The notes beneath the pieces were generated by a model. The model was not told where the DNA came from, made no database searches, and was given only the letters and a program-made list of their open reading frames with translations. The translations under genes and the position numbers were made by a program. From IMG/VR virus record IMGVR_UViG_3300020577_002776, positions 4,697 through 68,696 of that record: DNA of 64,000 nt, one strand, 5' to 3'. Shown here piece by piece: positions 206 to 8,692 of this stretch. Within the stretch, counting starts at the first letter, position 1, and the number at the start of each line of letters is the position of its first letter. The DNA comes from a virus (Duplodnaviria; Caudoviricetes).

Positions 206-430
206 TTACGATTCCTTGCGATTGTTGATTGCTTGCTTGAGCGACTCGACTACCATCCAATGCTCCGTAGTGCCAATGACTCTTACTACCTCACGAGCAG
301 CACGGACGATTGCTTCGGTCTGGTCTACGTGATCACGTAGCATCCTGAATGAGGTAGTCACGTCAAAGCAGGCTTTTAGATCAGTTGCGTATTCCTGGGC
401 AAGTGTGATCGTCTTTGGCACTGGCGTCAT
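206..430 (-). CDS. Hypothetical protein, 74 aa
   Basis: ORF overlaps the upstream gene stop by 4 nt (translational coupling); no motif recognised. Confidence 0.6.
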   Translation of the reverse strand: MTPVPKTITLAQEYATDLKACFDVTTSFRMLRDHVDQTEAIVRAAREVVRVIGTTEHWMVVESLKQAINNRKES

Positions 431-1002
431 AGCTGCTCCGTTAAGGCTGCGTTGCTAGGATGGTTGGCGTTCTCTGGCTTTGCTAGGCTATTCCAAAGAC
501 GGAGGCTAGTAAGCCTTGCTAAGTCGATTGCATCTACTGCGGTGATCGGCTTGGCATCCGTATTGGGCTTGGCCTTGCGGATTACGTTGATTGATACCCC
601 GGCGCTTCTGACCATCCGTGAGTCATGGCACAGCAGGATGATTCCGGAGTTGCTAGGCAGTTTCTCTGCTAGCTCGGGCTTCCATATGGCCTCTGGGAGC
701 GCGTAGTAATGCTTCCAGACCTTATCGGGCCACTCTCGCTTTTCGCGCGCTCCTGGGCCGTTTCTGCGGCTCCATGGCCTATGGTGATACCACTTGTCCT
801 TCTTCGGGTCCGCAAGCAAATCAGCCCGGCTAATCTTGACCTCTATGTCGGTGATCCGGAGATCAGGATTGACCACTAGCAGGTCGCATTCGTGGCCAGT
901 CCATCCGCAGTTGGGGACCACCAGCACGGAGCGGCTAGCAGTGAGTTGGTAGGCAAGAGCCCGGCTGATGCTGGCCTCTGTCCAGGGCTTCTCCGTGGCC
1001 AT
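427..1002 (-). CDS. MmcB-like PD-(D/E)XK nuclease-fold protein
   Basis: ECDLLVV...IEVKISRADL.AD..K.KW pattern typical of MmcB-related phage proteins. Confidence 0.65.
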   Translation of the reverse strand: MATEKPWTEASISRALAYQLTASRSVLVVPNCGWTGHECDLLVVNPDLRITDIEVKISRADLLADPKKDKWYHHRPWSRRNGPGAREKREWPDKVWKHYYALPEAIWKPELAEKLPSNSGIILLCHDSRMVRSAGVSINVIRKAKPNTDAKPITAVDAIDLARLTSLRLWNSLAKPENANHPSNAALTEQL

Positions 1003-1005
1003 TGC

Positions 1006-1347
1006 CTACACTGGCACAGGCATCGGTGCGCTTTGCAGGATAGTTTGGCTCGTAGGTCGGTATTCATCAGCCCGGACCTTGGTAGGAGTTTTAACGCAGG
1101 AAGCGCCACTATCTTCTGCTTTAGCTAACCGAGCATTGATCTCGTCCTTGAAGGCTTGCAGCTCCGCATCTAATTGCAGAATCAACGCCTTCGTCAAATC
1201 AGGCAACACTTCGCCAGGATTGGTGAATGCTAGGCGGGCTTCGACGTTTGAGAGCAGGGACATGGGGATGGCTCCGTAGAGTGGGGTGGGTTGATGGTCA
1301 GCAGGGGGCTTTGCTATCGAGTACTCGCATAGGGCAGCGTTGCTCAT
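1006..1347 (-). CDS. Hypothetical protein
   Basis: Co-oriented ORF ending 3 nt before the next start; ATG at 1347 preferred over TTG at 1353. Confidence 0.6.
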   Translation of the reverse strand: MSNAALCEYSIAKPPADHQPTPLYGAIPMSLLSNVEARLAFTNPGEVLPDLTKALILQLDAELQAFKDEINARLAKAEDSGASCVKTPTKVRADEYRPTSQTILQSAPMPVPV

Positions 1348-1871
1348 TTTCAAGAGGAGGCTTCTTGCAACCCGGCGCCAACCCGGGTGCTACTCGACAC
1401 GTTTAACGGCGTCACCGAAGCTGATGACCATCAACGGAGGGGCCTAACCGATCCCCCTTTGCCCAAACTGCCCCGTACATCCTAATCGGGTCCGGCCTAT
1501 CGGCCTTTAACGGGGCCGCAGGGCAGTTCGAAGGGCAGGCCCCTCCGTTGATGGTCCCGGGACTTTCACCCGGGTGCTTGTATGGGGGTCTGCAACCTTT
1601 GGTCGCAGACCCTGCTATCTACCATGATTAGTGGTAGTTTGATCTCGCCCCATCTGTAGGCAGTTTGGGAACTTTAGCCCCAGCATGAATGATGGAACCC
1701 CAAACTGCCTACAGATGGGTAAGGAAGGCGACCGCGGAGACCCCCTCCTTACTTTTCCCTCAGTAATGATCAAGGATCTACATATGACCTCCTGAACGCT
1801 CCCAGCTCTTTGACCTCGGCTAGCTGGGGGAAGCCTTCGGAATGTGCCGCACGATTCAAGGCGGACCCCCA

Positions 1872-1896
1872 TATATACGGCCCCGGCTAAAAATAC
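1872..1896 (-). promoter_or_regulatory. Phage-type promoter motif copy inside the structured region
   Basis: GTATT-14 nt ending in G-TATATA, the same geometry as nine other copies. Confidence 0.6.
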
Positions 1897-2108
1897 CCGG
1901 GTGAGCCGCCTGCCAGAACCCACCCGGGACCACGAAAGGGAGCCCCTGTGGGCAATCCATGAGAAACGAATGGATTGTTCGCAGCCTAGTTCTGCGAATC
2001 AAGGCCTATGCCAAGCTGGAGACTACACTGGAGATAGGCCATGCTGTGGCCCGCAGGAGCCCCCATCTACGCTGCTGGTCGGCGTAAATTCTTGCAGGGG
2101 AGCCAATG

Positions 2109-2135
2109 AAAAACGGGCTTGTTAGGCCCGTTTTT
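2109..2135. terminator. Bidirectional intrinsic terminator
   Basis: AAAAACGGGC/GCCCGTTTTT perfect 10-bp inverted repeat, giving a U5 tail on both strands. Confidence 0.75.
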
Positions 2136-2177
2136 GAGGGGTCAGTGTCAATTCTGACCATTACTATATGGGGAGCG

Positions 2178-2205
2178 ATACTATCATACTTTTTGGTATC
2201 TGCAA
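2178..2205 (-). promoter_or_regulatory. Possible sigma70 promoter
   Basis: TTGCAG-16 nt-TAGTAT with a TGn extended -10. Confidence 0.4.
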
Positions 2206-2210
2206 TCCCC

Positions 2211-2912
2211 CTAGTCCAAAAAGCCGGTCACCCCCTCCTGATCGAATAGGGCTGCTATCTGCATCAGGGCTTCCGTCAGCTCTCGCTCCAGGTATTCCCG
2301 AATCCATCCATCATGCTTGGCGGCGGTGATCGGGCTGACCTTGGCCTGCTTGGCTAGGCGTGAGATCGGGGTGGCCTCATTCAGGAAGTATCGCTCTACC
2401 AAGAGCCGACGCAAGACCGGCTCTGTGGATAGCCCCTTCTTGCCCGGCTGGCGCAACACGTCGGCCGTCTCCTTCAGGATCTCACACAGAGCCCCGATTG
2501 CTTGGCCCCACCGCTGGGTCTGGCGGAAGCCTTGGCAGCAGGGCGACTGGCAGTAGCAGGGGGCCGTAGGCTCAATATAACGGGCCTCCAAGATGCGAGC
2601 ATGGTGTGGGTCTAGCCTCCCCACTATCTGGAGGATAAACCCCGCCTGCATCGCTTTATTGAGGCCACGGAGCCGCTCCCCCGGCTGGCTGATGATGGTG
2701 GGCCGGGGTCTGCTTTCTGGCTCCTCTAGCGGATCAGGCCCCTGTAGGTGAAGGACCTTCTTCTTTTTCTTGGCCTTGGGCTTCGCAATAGGGACCGCCG
2801 CCATAGCCTTATTCATCACTGGTGAGGCAATGTGATAGGCTTCGGCGGCGTTCATTGCAAAGACCAGAGCCTTGTCCACGTGATCAAACGCGGGGGGCTC
2901 TGGGGTCGTCAT
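2211..2912 (-). CDS. Putative transcriptional regulator (antiterminator Q-like, Cys cluster plus C-terminal HTH)
   Basis: PCYCQSPCCQG cluster and an HTH-like ISRLAKQAKVSPITAAKH; ATG at 2912 overlaps the upstream TGA. Confidence 0.5.
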   Translation of the reverse strand: MTTPEPPAFDHVDKALVFAMNAAEAYHIASPVMNKAMAAVPIAKPKAKKKKKVLHLQGPDPLEEPESRPRPTIISQPGERLRGLNKAMQAGFILQIVGRLDPHHARILEARYIEPTAPCYCQSPCCQGFRQTQRWGQAIGALCEILKETADVLRQPGKKGLSTEPVLRRLLVERYFLNEATPISRLAKQAKVSPITAAKHDGWIREYLERELTEALMQIAALFDQEGVTGFLD

Positions 2913-3586
2913 ACTGCGTTGGTGGAGTAGTGATGACGGAGCAGGGCGTCCAGGTCTGGCTCCTGATAGTTCGGCCCCTTGATCCATTTGCCACTGGGGT
3001 CCTTGTCAATCATGCCGGTCTGCGGGTTGGCCTTGCTCAAGTTAGAGGTAGCCACTTCATCGTGCGCAGCCTGACCGGGGAGCCCGCAAGCCAGGCCCAT
3101 ACCGGCAACGACCACATGCAAATCAGTGCAGCCATCCAGTATTTCCTTGGCGACCTCCAGGGTCATTTGCTGATTAGCAGGAATCTCGACGCACTGGGCA
3201 ATACGCTCACGGATCACCTTAGACGTTGCCGCCATTACCCGGGCAATATGGGCGAAGTCCACGGCAATCCTGTACAGATCACTTCCCCGGCCCCTGGATA
3301 CGTCCTCGACCCCACCAGCAACCCCGGTCATGGTCTCTGCTGCTTCTTCAAGGATCAAGGCCGCGTAGAGCATGCCGGTCTTGGTCATCTGTGGGGAAGG
3401 CATCAGCACCTGCTGGCTGCGGGTCATCAGCTCTTGTTGACTGCGCCAAGGATTGGTGGTGCATGTTCGCTGCAATTGATTCCGTAGCCCCTTAATCTGG
3501 TGGCGTTGCACCAGGAGCTGAAGGAGCATAAAGCCCAGGATAAACAGAGCTGCCAGCAGGATAGAGTAGAAGGCAATGGGGTCCAT
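2909..3586 (-). CDS. MazG-like/PRA-PH all-alpha NTP pyrophosphohydrolase with N-terminal transmembrane helix
   Basis: LILEEAAE...EILDGCTDL.VV...EV..SNLSK...GK..KGPNY..PDL signature. Confidence 0.75.
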   Translation of the reverse strand: MDPIAFYSILLAALFILGFMLLQLLVQRHQIKGLRNQLQRTCTTNPWRSQQELMTRSQQVLMPSPQMTKTGMLYAALILEEAAETMTGVAGGVEDVSRGRGSDLYRIAVDFAHIARVMAATSKVIRERIAQCVEIPANQQMTLEVAKEILDGCTDLHVVVAGMGLACGLPGQAAHDEVATSNLSKANPQTGMIDKDPSGKWIKGPNYQEPDLDALLRHHYSTNAV

Positions 3587-3591
3587 GATCC

Positions 3592-4056
3592 TTATACCCC
3601 CATCGTAATAGCTTTGCCCATGAACACCGCGCTATTGGCGCCATGCTCTTTGACTTCCACGGACTGCAAGGTTACGCGGGGCGAGTAGCCGTTATCTTTG
3701 AGCCAGATTTCCGTGGCACCAAAGATCAGTTCTGCGAAGGCTTCGCAGCCTGTGTGCTCGACCATCACCACCCGGGCCAAACCTTTGGCTTGCAGGTCCA
3801 TAAAGGTTTCTACGTGGGGGTCATCCTCGGCCACCAGCAAGGTATGGTCAAAGGTGTCTTCCAGCCAGCCCTTAAGGCTTTTGAGCGAACCAAAGTCCAC
3901 CACCCAGTGGCGCACATCCAGCTCTTGAGCGGAGAAAACGAACTGAATGGCCAGCGCATAGCCGTGGAGCAGATTGCAATGGCTTTCCGCACGATGCTGA
4001 CGGAAGCAGGCAGACAGGCCCAACTCGTGGCCATAGGTTTTGGTACTCAAATGCAT
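3592..4056 (-). CDS. queD: 6-carboxy-5,6,7,8-tetrahydropterin synthase
   Basis: SHCNLLHGY...VVDFGSLK.LK..L...FDH..L...EAFAE...V.E...N.A T-fold motifs. Confidence 0.92.
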   Translation of the reverse strand: MHLSTKTYGHELGLSACFRQHRAESHCNLLHGYALAIQFVFSAQELDVRHWVVDFGSLKSLKGWLEDTFDHTLLVAEDDPHVETFMDLQAKGLARVVMVEHTGCEAFAELIFGATEIWLKDNGYSPRVTLQSVEVKEHGANSAVFMGKAITMGV

Positions 4057-4140: not shown

Positions 4141-5190
4141 TCACAGGTCAGAGATTAACTCCAGGGCCTGCTGCTTGATGGCGTCACCTCGGCCGAACCA
4201 AGCCGCATCCAGCCGGGTATCCTGAGCACGGCCCATATCATGGTCCACGTGTTGGGTGACTGCGTTGAGCAGGCCCCACGCCGTGCCCTTAGCCGTCTTG
4301 AGCCCGGCACCCATGCCCTCACCTTGGTACAGATCGAGGATGCTGGTAACCGACCAGGGATCCTTGGCCTCCGGCTCTACGTCGACCTGGGACAGGTCCC
4401 CGAGCCATGCGAGCTTAGGAGCGAGTTTCTGCGCTTCCTTGACCCGGAACAGATCGTGGAGAATATCGCGCGCCTGCGCCACGGATACGGGGGTCTCCGC
4501 AAGTTCCTGAGCGTGGGCAAGGAACTGGGCGAAGCTATCTTGTTTGATCCCCAGTGCGTTTTTGACCAAGTTGGGATCAAAAGCAGAGCGGTGGCTGGTG
4601 GCCACAAACCGGGCGCCCCGTTCGTTGCGCAGAGCCAGGCTCAGTGTATTGGCACAGACCACGCGGACTGCCGTCTCTTTGGCAATGGTCTTCATGCTCC
4701 CGTCAAGGCTGGTAGCCAGCAGCAGGTTGCGCTTGATCTTGTCCCCTTTACCCACGTTGCCGGCATCCCCATTGGTGGCCATGGCCCAGAGCTTGCGGCC
4801 ACCACGGAGCACGCCAGCAGTGTGAATCCACCAGCCCCCGGTCTCGGTCATATCGCGGAAGAACTCCAGAATGTCGAGGGGCTGAACCACTTGGTAATCC
4901 TCCCCCACGATAGCGAGTTGAGCTTTGGTGTCGGAGCGATAAAGCATCTTGTAGCCTTCTGCTTGCTGCTCGTACTCCTCCAGGTCTCCTGGGGCGCCAC
5001 CTTTGAAGGGCCGATCTACTGTGAAGGTCAGGCCAGCCTCTCCGGCGCTCCAATCCATCCCGGCTTCCTTGGCCCAGACCCCAATGCTGGCGCCTTTGGT
5101 TACGGACTTGCCAAGACCATGCCATGGGGTTTCACCAACAAAAGCCATTTCGGCCGTGCCGTCAGTGCGTAAAGATAATTCGTGGCTCAT
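4141..5190 (-). CDS. DUF932 family phage/plasmid protein
   Basis: MAFVGETPWHGLG start, YQVVQP, AG.LRGGRKLW, S.DGS...T.VRVVCANT, TAWGLLNAVT..DH. Confidence 0.88.
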   Translation of the reverse strand: MSHELSLRTDGTAEMAFVGETPWHGLGKSVTKGASIGVWAKEAGMDWSAGEAGLTFTVDRPFKGGAPGDLEEYEQQAEGYKMLYRSDTKAQLAIVGEDYQVVQPLDILEFFRDMTETGGWWIHTAGVLRGGRKLWAMATNGDAGNVGKGDKIKRNLLLATSLDGSMKTIAKETAVRVVCANTLSLALRNERGARFVATSHRSAFDPNLVKNALGIKQDSFAQFLAHAQELAETPVSVAQARDILHDLFRVKEAQKLAPKLAWLGDLSQVDVEPEAKDPWSVTSILDLYQGEGMGAGLKTAKGTAWGLLNAVTQHVDHDMGRAQDTRLDAAWFGRGDAIKQQALELISDL

Positions 5191-5621
5191 TTGCGGACTC
5201 CTTTAACTGATTGAATTGCTTGGGAAACGCTCTGACCGGCTTTAATCCGTCGATATAAACGCAAATATGGAATCCCCAGAAGATTGGAAGTTTCCCGAAG
5301 ACTTAGCCCCCGAAATCGAATAGTGCTACTTTTATTGTTATTCTGCTGCGCTGCTGTAGCCCACCGACAGTTGCTTTTGCAATAACCACCAGCATTATCT
5401 TTGCGGTCTAATGAATGTTGATCCGTAGGCGGATGCCCCATGTCCTCGAAGAAATTCAAAAAATCTGCCCATCTAGGGTCTATTGAAATAGGTTTATCCG
5501 CATAAGCTCCGCAATTAGATAAACGTCCCTTCATTGCCTTCCATATCCGATAAGTTCGATGCTCCTGTAAATTGACACCAGAGGCCAATCCCAAAATTTT
5601 GATCGTATCACCATAAGCCAT
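5187..5621 (-). CDS. HNH-type homing-endonuclease-like protein
   Basis: W..MK.R...IDPRWADF..F.EDMG.PP...SLDRKDNAGGYCKSNCRWAT..QNNN. Confidence 0.82.
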   Translation of the reverse strand: MAYGDTIKILGLASGVNLQEHRTYRIWKAMKGRLSNCGAYADKPISIDPRWADFLNFFEDMGHPPTDQHSLDRKDNAGGYCKSNCRWATAAQQNNNKSSTIRFRGLSLRETSNLLGIPYLRLYRRIKAGQSVSQAIQSVKGVRK

Positions 5622-5771
5622 TTGTGTTTCCTCTTGATTAGGTGGAATGCCCACCGGGGGAGGCCCTCGTTAGAAGACCCAGCCCGTTGAGTTATTGCAA
5701 CGCCGTGCCTAGCAGAATAACGATGGCCAGAGCAACTGCCCAGAGCCAATCAACCAGCGTGGGGTTCATGC

Positions 5772-6785
5772 TCACAGCACCAAGTTATCAGTGCTACCAG
5801 CAGCCACTTTGAGGGCTTCAAGAGCACCAAACGTGTAGGCCAGCGCCAACTCCGGATCCTTAGCCACCCAAGCACGCAAATCATCCTTAGCCTTCATGCC
5901 TGCTGGCTCCAGCAAGGTTAGGAGGGCCGCTGCCATCTTGGCGCCTATCTCAGACAGGGCCACGTCATCCAGAGCGCGAATCTTCAAGGTCTTGCCCTTC
6001 TTGGCTGCTTTGGCTGCGCGGGTCTTTTCCACTTCCTTGAGCACGGCCCGGCGCTTGGTCGAATCTTTGCCCACGGCTTTGGCCTGCTTGACCAGCTCTT
6101 GCTGCTTGGCCTTGTCGCCCTTGGCAACCTTGGCAATCTGCTTGGCGATGGTCTTGCCAATAGAGCCATCAGTCACAGCTTCCTTCACGGATTCGTCAGC
6201 ATTGAGTAAGCCCATGATCTCAATCACGTGAACGTGCTTGCGCCCCACGGCGGCGCAAATCTCTTTGATGGTCATGCCGGCTTCCTGCATTTTCTTGTAG
6301 GCCATGGCTTCTTCCAAGGGAAGGAACGCCTTGCCCTCATTGGCAATGAACATCTTCAGCAGGCCGTCAATCTCGGTTTGATCTTTACCGTCGATCTTGG
6401 CAGGGATCCCGAACTCAAAGACTTCGCCCCGCTTGATCAGCAATTCAATGGCAGTCAAGCGGCGATCTCCGTCGACCAGCTCAAAAATGGGGCCGTCACC
6501 GGCAGCAAGGCGCTTCACCCGAATGTCATTCAAGAGGCCGTGTCCGTCCTGGGCTTTCTGGGTTTTGATTTGAGCAGCAAGGCGCTCAATGTCCCCAAAG
6601 TCGAAACGTGGGTTGTGGCCCTCTTTGCGAACGATCTTGGTGGGGTCAATAAAGAACTGGTTGGTGCGCTTCAGCACGCCGGCTGGGTTACTGGAAGACG
6701 AAGCAGCCGGGGCTTGCTTGCTATCTTTGGCTACCTTGGCAATGACTGCGGAGGCAGCGGCTTGGGCTTTTTTAGAATCAGACAT
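5772..6785 (-). CDS. ParB-like protein (ParB/Srx N-domain plus HTH)
   Basis: NPRFDFGDIE.LA.QIK...LL..I.V...ELVDGDRRL.A, followed by EEA.AYKKM...IKEICAAVGRK HTH. Confidence 0.82.
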   Translation of the reverse strand: MSDSKKAQAAASAVIAKVAKDSKQAPAASSSSNPAGVLKRTNQFFIDPTKIVRKEGHNPRFDFGDIERLAAQIKTQKAQDGHGLLNDIRVKRLAAGDGPIFELVDGDRRLTAIELLIKRGEVFEFGIPAKIDGKDQTEIDGLLKMFIANEGKAFLPLEEAMAYKKMQEAGMTIKEICAAVGRKHVHVIEIMGLLNADESVKEAVTDGSIGKTIAKQIAKVAKGDKAKQQELVKQAKAVGKDSTKRRAVLKEVEKTRAAKAAKKGKTLKIRALDDVALSEIGAKMAAALLTLLEPAGMKAKDDLRAWVAKDPELALAYTFGALEALKVAAGSTDNLVL

Positions 6786-6860
6786 TTGAAATCTCCTTAA
6801 GTTAAGGGTGAGCGGGATGCCAACCAGAAGGCCCAGCACGCTAGGCCGTCGGTTTGGTTA

Positions 6861-7641: not shown

Positions 7642-8232
7642 TCACCGCGCTTCCCGGCTGGTCCAGCGCTTGGCAACCAGCAAGGCTAATCCTGACTCCA
7701 GATAGCCGGGGAAAGATTGGTCAAAGATGCTGGCCACGTTCGTGGCGCAGTTGGCCACCAGCTTGCCACTCAGCGGGATCCTGGCCTTCCTAGCCACGGA
7801 GCGTGCGGAGCCAACCACGAGGCTTGCTAGCATTACGTAGATGGATTGCCGCTCCGTCACGGTAAGCTGATCAAGCCGGCTGGTCTTCATGAAAGTAGCC
7901 ACGGAGGACCAACTCGCAGGAACGGCCAAGGATCGTTTTATTTGAGCCGGGCCTACCAGCCCCCCATCCTCGCCCCCGTTCGCGGCTACTATCGCGTCGT
8001 AAACGGCTCCTGCCCACATGTCGACGTCGCGGGTCTCGCCGCTTGGCAAGGTTTGAGCATTCAGAGCCAGCCTAGCAAGGAATTCTTTACGTAGCTCCGG
8101 AGCCAACTTAGCAGCTTGGTCAAGGAGTTGATCTACCGGACTTCCTACTGGCTTACGGACTTCGGTGCTTGGTGTTTCTTTTACGTAGCTTTTTATGCTC
8201 CGTGATGGGCGGACAAGATTTACTCGTTTCAT
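7642..8232 (-). CDS. Hypothetical protein, 196 aa
   Basis: ORF with GGAGGTGAGG Shine-Dalgarno; no motif recognised. Confidence 0.7.
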   Translation of the reverse strand: MKRVNLVRPSRSIKSYVKETPSTEVRKPVGSPVDQLLDQAAKLAPELRKEFLARLALNAQTLPSGETRDVDMWAGAVYDAIVAANGGEDGGLVGPAQIKRSLAVPASWSSVATFMKTSRLDQLTVTERQSIYVMLASLVVGSARSVARKARIPLSGKLVANCATNVASIFDQSFPGYLESGLALLVAKRWTSREAR

Positions 8233-8258
8233 ACCTCACCTCCGTTCGGGGTCGGAAG

Positions 8259-8304
8259 CAGGGGGGTAAGTATAAATATATTTATATATATTTTTACCCC
8301 CCTG
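8259..8304. other. AT-rich palindrome (candidate origin or unwinding element)
   Basis: 11-bp inverted repeat CAGGGGGGTAA/TTACCCCCCTG enclosing 26 consecutive A/T (8271-8296), including the perfect palindrome TATAAATATATTTATA. Confidence 0.5.
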
Positions 8305-8350
8305 ACCTTTCCCCCATGCAATTTACTAACTAAATTGAGAATTACGGTAA

Positions 8351-8692
8351 TCATTTTTCGCCCCTACGTGGCTTGTCCGTAGTTAAGTTGTGCCAGCGCA
8401 CGTTGAAGCAATCACCGTCGTGGTAGTAGACCTTGCGTGCGAATTTACCGGTCATCCAAAACCAAACTAGTTTACCCGCTTCGACAGCGTGATAAGCCAC
8501 TTTGACCTTGTAGTAAGGCTCCCTGCCAAACTTGCGGTAAGCCAGCCCACCAGCAATCGAGTGGGCCAAGGCACTGCCTATGTCGTAGACCCAAACCAGC
8601 TCACCAGATGCTGGATTGTAATCCAGCACTTGCCGCACGTATTCAAACAGGAGCGGGTCGTCACTGGTGAGCTTGATTTGGTCGACGAGCAT
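8351..8692 (-). CDS. Degenerate HNH endonuclease-like protein
   Basis: LDYNPASGELVW start and YHDGDCFNVRWHNL resembling the H..GD..N...NL motif. Confidence 0.6.
   Translation of the reverse strand: MLVDQIKLTSDDPLLFEYVRQVLDYNPASGELVWVYDIGSALAHSIAGGLAYRKFGREPYYKVKVAYHAVEAGKLVWFWMTGKFARKVYYHDGDCFNVRWHNLTTDKPRRGEK

Follow-up and report, generated by a model that had tools for sequence, protein, structure and literature searches.

The minus-strand stretch 1264-2210 was found to be best explained as the untranslated, structured, cis-acting leader of a late (packaging and morphogenesis) operon under antitermination control, an explanation which we hold with moderate confidence. The gap between the flanking genes is conserved among relatives, its helices covary, the RNA is read on one definite strand, the protein encoded upstream has an antiterminator-like fold and the stretch lacks coding capacity. 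The leader is taken as a part of the mRNA because no terminator separates it from the first gene, two terminators lie upstream and a start-stop site is conserved within it. A preliminary description had placed a candidate novel large structured non-coding RNA at 1351-1877; the RNA was indeed conserved, covarying, non-coding and without a match in Rfam, but it is most likely not free-standing, and the unit was found to extend from 1264 to 2210.

The window, which is the whole stretch of 64,000 nucleotides analysed, comprises bases 4697-68696 of a 68.7-kb IMG/VR phage record (about 99% complete), and its own sequence is called WIN in the lineage comparisons. The genes from 427 to about 7000 were all found on the minus strand, with the following features in the order of transcription:

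5772-6839, minus strand: ParB-like gene, the first in transcription order
5187-5654, minus strand: HNH endonuclease-like gene, after the ParB-like gene
4141-5190, minus strand: DUF932 gene, after the HNH endonuclease-like gene
3592-4056, minus strand: QueD gene, after the DUF932 gene
2909-3586, minus strand: pyrophosphohydrolase-like gene, between QueD and the 233-aa gene
2211-2912, minus strand: gene of the 233-aa antiterminator-like protein, directly before the non-coding gap
1264-2210, minus strand: non-coding gap of 947 nt, between the 233-aa gene and the 85-aa gene
1263 (ATG) to 1006, minus strand: first late gene, 85 aa, with the Shine-Dalgarno sequence GGAG at 1275-1272
427-1002, minus strand: MmcB-like nuclease gene, after the 85-aa gene
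L082 3018-4406: large terminase gene (TerL), beyond the small genes that follow the MmcB-like nuclease

This gene order places the gap ahead of the packaging operon, and the gap was found 2.5 kb upstream of TerL. The proteins of relatives that correspond to the 85-aa gene begin at the homologous Met with GGAG ahead of it, and upstream of 1263 the nucleotides were kept as RNA structure and not as codons. Since the relatives' proteins start at that Met, the mechanically called ORF 1006-1353 (115 aa) is over-extended and the gap measures 947 nt. The same ORF overlaps the conserved RNA that is called the E-domain below.

A search with the 233-aa protein returned 24 relatives with 38-87% identity, and the comparative set comprised about 12 lineages. 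As a query in viral contigs the protein found a single relative (L005/L084), and the relatives compared here were taken from the protein database and its contigs. The synteny in 12 lineages was found to run ParB, DUF932, QueD, pyrophosphohydrolase-like, antiterminator-like, gap, small genes with the MmcB-like nuclease, and TerL, the gap being 440-1200 nt long and in the same gene position. The gene order and the gap were kept in the IMG/VR contigs L005 and L006 as well. The cultured relative Edwardsiella phage vB_EpM_ZHS, which infects Edwardsiella piscicida, was found to contain a TerL of 65% identity and a 233-aa protein homologue of 43% identity. The phages vB_EpM_ZHS and L211 contained the same elements, but with 3-4 extra genes ahead of the gap, and the part that this clade has in common with the family is the 5′ part of the leader. 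In vB_EpM_ZHS (L212, OM621816.1) the leader with its promoter, T1, domain B, T2 and mini-ORF was located at 8070-8677 before an MmcB-family gene, the gap itself lying at about 66306-66913 by the numbering of the record, and four small genes separate it from the antiterminator-like gene, which is annotated as 'DNA-binding protein'.

A second non-coding gap of 480-770 nt was observed directly upstream of the large terminase gene in relatives, at the following positions:

L085, 6746-7233: second gap
L087, 6524-7006: second gap
L089, 4803-5404: second gap
L092, 2844-3611: second gap
L094, 6149-6912: second gap

The second gap of the window's phage is expected at about L082 4407-4670, and a pac site or another RNA could be located there.

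The preliminary description had found no credible ORF in the region, and the comparison agreed with it. The frame of ORF 1615-1923 (102 aa) was shortened to 43 aa in L085 and L087, the nearest two of the relatives, and the indels of that region in both were not multiples of three. No tRNA was found in the window. The Rfam cmscan returned no match at gathering scores in the window, two chance-level matches at E up to 10 on 1000-2400 and no match in eight relatives at E up to 0.1; the preliminary description had not matched the RNA by eye either.

The true start of the 233-aa protein was found by alignment with L005 to be Met26 of ORF 2211-2987, 25 codons into the listed ORF. No Pfam or PHROG family was matched by the protein, and in the same search no sequence similarity to Q or AlpA was detectable. 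An AlphaFold (AF2) model built with 24 sequences had a pLDDT of 76.5. Compared by VIA, the model matched Pseudomonas AlpA (7xyb_G) with Z 12.6 and 155 of 168 residues aligned, followed by the next entry at Z 6.1, and 21Q (6jnx_P) was matched with Z 4.6. Foldseek ranked the AlpA entries 7xyb_G and 7xya_G first with probability 1.00, yet with E of only 0.07-0.09. On this modelled fold, the protein is likely to be an AlpA/Q21-like antiterminator. A conserved cluster of four Cys and a C-terminal helix-turn-helix were also observed in it.

The adjacency and conservation of the two elements suggest that the antiterminator-like protein would act on the promoter at 2205-2178; the 3-4 genes between gene and promoter in the ZHS/L211 clade weaken the argument from adjacency. 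AlpA and Q join RNA polymerase where it pauses at a -10-like element beside a promoter-proximal binding site, and the loaded polymerase then ignores downstream terminator hairpins (PMC9371919). Both systems depend on three elements, namely a promoter, a -10-like element early in the transcript and a terminator further on (PMC9371919), and candidates for all three are conserved in the leader. The first 320 nt of the leader are read as the putative target of the 233-aa protein because their layout is that of the lambdoid Q systems and of AlpA.

The anatomy of the leader, taken from the alignment of 12 lineages and read on the minus strand, was found to be as follows:

2178-2205, minus strand: putative extended -10 promoter of sigma-70 type (TTGCAG, 16-nt spacer, TG-n-TAGTAT), a block kept in 12 lineages
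2140-2168, minus strand: initially transcribed region, identical in WIN, L085 and L087 and kept in the other lineages
2109-2135, minus strand: intrinsic terminator T1, a GC hairpin with a T-run, in the same place in all lineages with differing stem sequences
1941-2108, minus strand: structured domain B between T1 and T2, with blocks such as GTCTCC conserved in all lineages
1889-1928, minus strand: terminator-like hairpin T2, with a conserved GGCGG loop and a U-run on the gene strand only
1871-1878, minus strand: GTATATAT block, directly after T2 and conserved in all lineages
1778-1828, minus strand: hairpin (1828-1822/1807-1801) and start-stop mini-ORF
1649-1752, minus strand: sub-clade hairpins at 1752-1719 and hp2 at 1719-1649, in WIN, L085/86 and L087/88 only
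1557-1637, minus strand: small hairpins at 1637-1619, 1612-1586 and 1575-1557, poorly conserved, present in WIN and L085 and altered or deleted in L087
1426-1556, minus strand: hp1, a long hairpin present across the family
1290-1435, minus strand: long-range helix P-LR (1435-1421 with 1304-1290; 15 nt at 93%), which encloses the E-domain
1317-1397, minus strand: E-domain, 81 nt with three helices, consisting of the closing helix P_E, hairpin E1, single-stranded CTCCTCTTG and hairpin E2

The promoter was found to contain a conserved AAAA block between its -35 and -10 elements, followed in the initially transcribed region by the -10-like TATAGT at 2168-2163 (about +3 to +8) and a conserved hairpin at 2159-2154/2145-2140. 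By analogy with AlpA and Q (PMC9371919), the -10-like element may serve sigma-dependent pausing and loading of the antiterminator. The scan called neither promoter nor T1 nor T2 in the window itself; promoter and T1 were called at the homologous sites of relatives, the promoter in L089 (TTGACC-16-TAGTAT with TG) and T1 on the gene strand in L089, L092 and L209. The failure of the scan at T1 in the window is attributed to the A and T runs which flank the stem on both sides. A phage-type promoter had been proposed earlier at about 1877 on the minus strand, at the 5′ end of the supposed RNA. No promoter was called by the scan at the GTATATAT block in the window, L089, L092 or L209, and the conserved promoter was located instead at about 2205-2178.

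In T2, RNAalifold on 11 lineages predicted 13 pairs; eight of these had changed in a compensatory way, and four G-U pairs were kept when read on the gene strand. The stem near 1799-1830, which had been noticed before, was read from the sequence as 1801-1807/1822-1828 and covaries across lineages. It is followed by the mini-ORF, in which the Shine-Dalgarno sequence AGGAGG (1793-1788), a 4-nt space, ATG (1783-1781) and TAG (1780-1778) were found. The mini-ORF was kept in seven lineages (WIN, L085, L087, L089, L209, L211 and Edwardsiella phage ZHS) with 0-1 sense codon, the ZHS version being ATG CTG TAA.

The direction of the RNA was found to be that of the genes. The U-runs of T1 and T2 are present on the gene strand only, the G-U pairs of T2, P_E and hp1 would be A-C mismatches on the opposite strand, and in 11 of 12 lineages the gene direction gave the more stable fold, with a mean difference of about 20 kcal/mol. 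These features, together with the start-stop element, indicate that the leader RNA is read on the minus strand. One change was of the other kind, a G-U to A-C change in the hairpin 1612-1586 of L085, which would suit the opposite strand. Against dinucleotide shuffles the plus strand of 1354-2210 folded with z -10.9 and its minus strand with z -9.2, and the minus strand of 1240-1900 folded with z -7.7, no shuffle having folded as well.

The stems that had been listed from the sequence of the window were all recovered. The 20-bp stem 1426-1445/1537-1556, which is the base of hp1, and the 21-bp stem 1649-1669/1699-1719, which is that of hp2, were present with 20 and 21 nt, respectively, and 100% complementarity. 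The nested stem was present at 1466-1473/1521-1528 (8 nt), the hairpin near 1586-1612 at 1586-1597/1601-1612 (12 nt, 92%) and the stem near 1719-1752 at 1719-1728/1743-1752 (10 nt, 90%). A long-range pair reported at 1581-1590/1864-1873 was found as 1581-1593/1861-1873 (13 nt, 92%), but it was weakened in L085 and lost one side by deletion in L087. The supposed closing helix 1381-1389/1567-1575 was likewise present in the sequence with 9 nt but was not conserved; it competes with E1, which covaries in 13 sequences, and its partner was absent outside WIN and L085. Compensatory changes in homologues, which had been named as a check on the structure, were found in 10 pairs of hp2, 8 of T2 and 14 of 16 of the E-domain.

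Of the 32 pairs predicted for hairpin hp2, 10 showed compensation in the comparison of three sequences; the 19 core pairs were all kept and the loop motif GGGGCTAAAGT was unchanged. WIN and L085 alone differed by four double changes. Since the 19 core pairs were kept through 10 double changes with a fixed loop, hp2 is considered to be under selection for pairing. An alternative fold based on an 11-mer that hp2 has in common with the hp1 interior was rejected: the arms of hp2 changed with compensation in L085, the interior of hp1 did not follow them, and the cross-pairing is thus not maintained.

Hairpin hp1 was found in nine lineages as an uninterrupted helix of 13-22 bp in the same relative place, with differing arm sequences and an interior of 4 to 89 nt. 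It was interrupted in L089 and absent from L091, where a 22-bp long-range helix takes its place. The helix was longer than that of every shuffle in seven of the eight lineages tested, and its L085 version showed one pair with compensation and, on the gene strand, two G-U pairs. Downstream of 1878, uninterrupted pairing reached 22 bp in the window and at most 15 bp in 40 dinucleotide shuffles. P-LR was found in 11 lineages with a mean of 12.9 bp within the same lineage, against 7.7 bp in the cross-lineage control. Its 5′ strand always overlaps the five bases, GATGG or a covarying counterpart, with which the 3′ arm of hp1 ends, so that hp1 and P-LR cannot both form fully. Uninterrupted helices of 16-22 bp were present at the position of hp1 or P-LR in nine of 11 lineages, and they fit the two-turn size of an RNase III site.

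The base motif CCATC/GATGG was found to be common to hp1, hp2, a third hairpin of L085 and the 3′ strand of P-LR. The third hairpin (16 bp) is located in an extra insertion of 260 nt after hp1, at L085 5000-5260 and also in L086, and contains the same CCATCA...TGATGG base; from this hairpin the long hairpins look like duplicated units.

The loop of E1 in the E-domain was found to contain GTTGGCG in WIN and GTTAGCG elsewhere, and the loop of E2 contained 8 nt. The covariance model R1, which was built from 10 lineages, gave 13 instances with 33-78 bits, of which L209, L006 and L081 were newly found. In the 13 sequences 94.7% of cells were paired and 14 of 16 pairs were compensated, counts which are inflated by an alignment that was fitted to R1. 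The covariation score on the same R1-fitted alignment was 0.82, against 0.21 for the shuffled and at most 0.21 for the slid controls. In a model-free cross-lineage test, P_E formed 7-10 bp within nine of 10 lineages, while pairing between lineages averaged 4.8 bp. With the filters off, R1 found no E-domain in Edwardsiella phage ZHS or L211.

In the more distant phage L081 (6390-7333) an E-domain of 42 bits was observed about 280 nt after the gene of a Cys-rich 196-aa protein and 2.7 kb downstream of an MmcB-like gene. BLASTP gave no significant match between the 196-aa and the 233-aa proteins (E 0.88). As a candidate partner of the RNA, the MmcB-like nuclease was rejected, since the E-domain was found upstream of the gene in L005 and L006 only among 77 viral loci with the gene, and in L081 it lies 2.7 kb downstream, after another gene. 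A hammerhead-like ribozyme was also rejected, since the core motifs were absent by eye and Rfam gave no match. The loops of E1 and E2 could kiss by AGCG with TGCT, the pairing of GGCG with TGCC, present in WIN alone, being a compensated A-U to G-C change; L092 breaks one pair, and the kissing rests on this single event and is a lead only.

The sequence contained no terminator between the E-domain and the Shine-Dalgarno sequence of the first gene. The hairpin domain is located beyond the terminators and is continuous with the first gene, and the simplest reading of it is that of a part of the late mRNA which acts in cis. In the proposed mechanism, transcription would start at the extended -10 promoter (2205-2178) directly behind the AlpA/Q21-like gene, and in the absence of the antiterminator the polymerase would stop at T1 (2135-2109) or T2 (1928-1889). 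A polymerase loaded with the antiterminator at the -10-like element would read into a chain of hairpins of about 600 nt, which would hold the ribosome-binding start-stop mini-ORF (1793-1778) and perfect helices of 19-22 bp, with hp2 limited to the sub-clade and hp1 family-wide. The chain would end in hp1, P-LR and the E-domain just before the Shine-Dalgarno sequence of the first late gene (ATG 1263). The hairpin domain would work after transcription. The perfect two-turn helices could be processing or stabilising sites of RNase III type, and hp1 and P-LR, in competing for GAUGG, could gate the access to the first ribosome-binding site. Both roles are suggested by the helix length of about two turns, the competition of hp1 with P-LR and the position before the Shine-Dalgarno sequence; they are conjectures, given less than even weight even within the leader model.

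It is also possible, at a tentative level, that hp1, P-LR and the E-domain, which are family-wide, form a regulatory phage RNA of a new class that has its own specific partner, such as a sensor-like switch or a protein- or ribosome-binding element which times the translation of the packaging operon, or that RNase III releases them as a trans-acting RNA. If true, either would be a second, RNA-based checkpoint behind Q-type antitermination.

We regard as unlikely a stable non-coding RNA that acts in trans, e.g. a protein-binding or packaging-associated one, formed by excision of hp1 with P-LR and the E-domain or by termination of the transcript from the promoter to T1 or T2. The invariant loops and three-helix architecture of the E-domain are typical of RNAs that have a specific partner, excision could take place at the long perfect helices, the E-domain of L081 follows a different Cys-rich gene away from the MmcB-like gene, and the RNA from the promoter to T1 resembles lambda 6S RNA in layout. 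The hairpin domain, however, was found without a flanking terminator or a promoter of its own, abuts the Shine-Dalgarno sequence of the next gene in every lineage, contains the conserved, putatively ribosome-binding start-stop site and is present in a single copy per genome. A free-standing RNA of the GOLLD or ROOL kind, which the preliminary description had brought up, is not supported: the structure lies downstream of two terminators after the AlpA/Q-like gene, holds the conserved, putatively ribosome-binding start-stop site and runs without a terminator into the Shine-Dalgarno sequence of the next gene.

It is quite unlikely that the promoter, T1, T2 and the E-domain are the only functional elements, with hp2 and the enlarged hp1 interior arising from recent duplications of hairpins that are selfish or neutral. 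Most lineages were found to lack hp2 and its neighbouring small hairpins, which are present in the WIN, L085 and L087 sub-clade only, and L085 adds the 260-nt insertion, in which a third such hairpin is located; but hp2 keeps its 19 core pairs through 10 double changes with the loop motif fixed, and neither the genome of the phage nor the scanned public collections contained a second copy. In the own-genome search the leader sequence occurred once. The stem sequences were found neither in viral contigs by exact-stem search nor in cultured phages by blastn. A degenerate T2 pattern gave 68 matches in the JGI metagenome and 46 in the GTDB genome collections, all taken as chance since the nhmmer leader profile matched none of them, and over the JGI metagenome, GTDB genome and IMG/VR collections the pattern gave chance matches or none. 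A MITE-like or dispersed repeat was rejected, the phage's own genome containing this locus only and the stems being absent from the viral contigs and the phage collection.

An element that acts as DNA (a pac or cos site, an origin or a cruciform), with proteins recognising inverted repeats by their CCATCA...TGATGG bases, is very improbable. The location just upstream of the packaging genes, 2.5 kb from TerL, would suit recognition by the terminase, the CCATC/GATGG base is common to hp1, hp2, the third hairpin of L085 and the 3′ strand of P-LR, and perfect repeats of 20-22 bp are unusual for RNA. The half-sites, however, are spaced 4 to 111 nt apart, unlike those of a dimer on duplex DNA, and the arm sequences covary and are not conserved; variable spacing and covarying arms together disfavour a protein-binding duplex site as well as a cruciform. 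The G-U pairs on one strand only and the greater stability of the gene-direction fold in 11 of 12 lineages are also against it, and the contig ends of near-complete relatives do not fall at the gap. The DNA cruciform that had been mentioned as an alternative at the outset is opposed by the strand-specific G-U pairs and the unidirectional terminators.

A protein family without a Pfam or PHROG match and without annotation is now given a likely AlpA/Q21-like antiterminator function, and the E-domain is defined as an 81-nt motif for which a covariance model works. The textbook switch of Q-type antitermination is usually drawn with a promoter, a short leader, a terminator and the genes. The switch in this phage family is trailed by hundreds of bases of conserved, covarying RNA absent from RNA databases, which suggests a second check on the late genes at the RNA level. 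The cultured vB_EpM_ZHS shares the promoter, T1, T2 and the mini-ORF, without the hairpin and E-domain part, and the shared part can be tested at the bench.

The late control region of lambdoid phages (Q gene, pR', qut, 6S RNA and tR') and the Pseudomonas AlpA/alpB leader contain, as is predicted here, an antiterminator gene directly upstream of a sigma-70 promoter, followed by a -10-like element in the initial transcript, an intrinsic terminator some tens of nucleotides on and the late genes beyond. The present leader differs from them in two terminator-like hairpins that lie 170 nt apart with a structured domain between them, and in 150-850 nt more of conserved folded RNA before the first gene; the antitermination itself is predicted here, and the protein of this leader matches AlpA by fold without detectable sequence similarity to AlpA or Q. 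The RNase III hairpins of phage mRNAs (T7 early and late, the lambda N leader and sib) lie in untranslated parts of the operon transcripts, and as here they are helices of about two turns (19-22 bp) near translation starts. The sites of T7 carry internal loops whereas the helices found here are perfect, so that the likeness is one of size and position only. GOLLD and ROOL are, as here, large, highly structured, phage-encoded and non-coding; the present RNA differs in its architecture, its continuity with the mRNA, the absence of flanking tRNAs and the lack of an Rfam match even at E up to 10. Start-stop mini-ORFs are known in bacterial 5′ leaders (bioRxiv 10.1101/520783), where a Shine-Dalgarno sequence, an ATG and an immediate stop are conserved as they are here; the context here is a phage late leader. 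No similarity to the HK022 put, EAR or LoaP elements was found by Rfam on 1000-2400. The HK022 put sites, the EAR element and the LoaP leader hairpins are, as here, conserved structured RNAs in the terminator-containing leader of a long operon, but they are located upstream of the terminators which they suppress, whereas the E-domain is located downstream of both T1 and T2.
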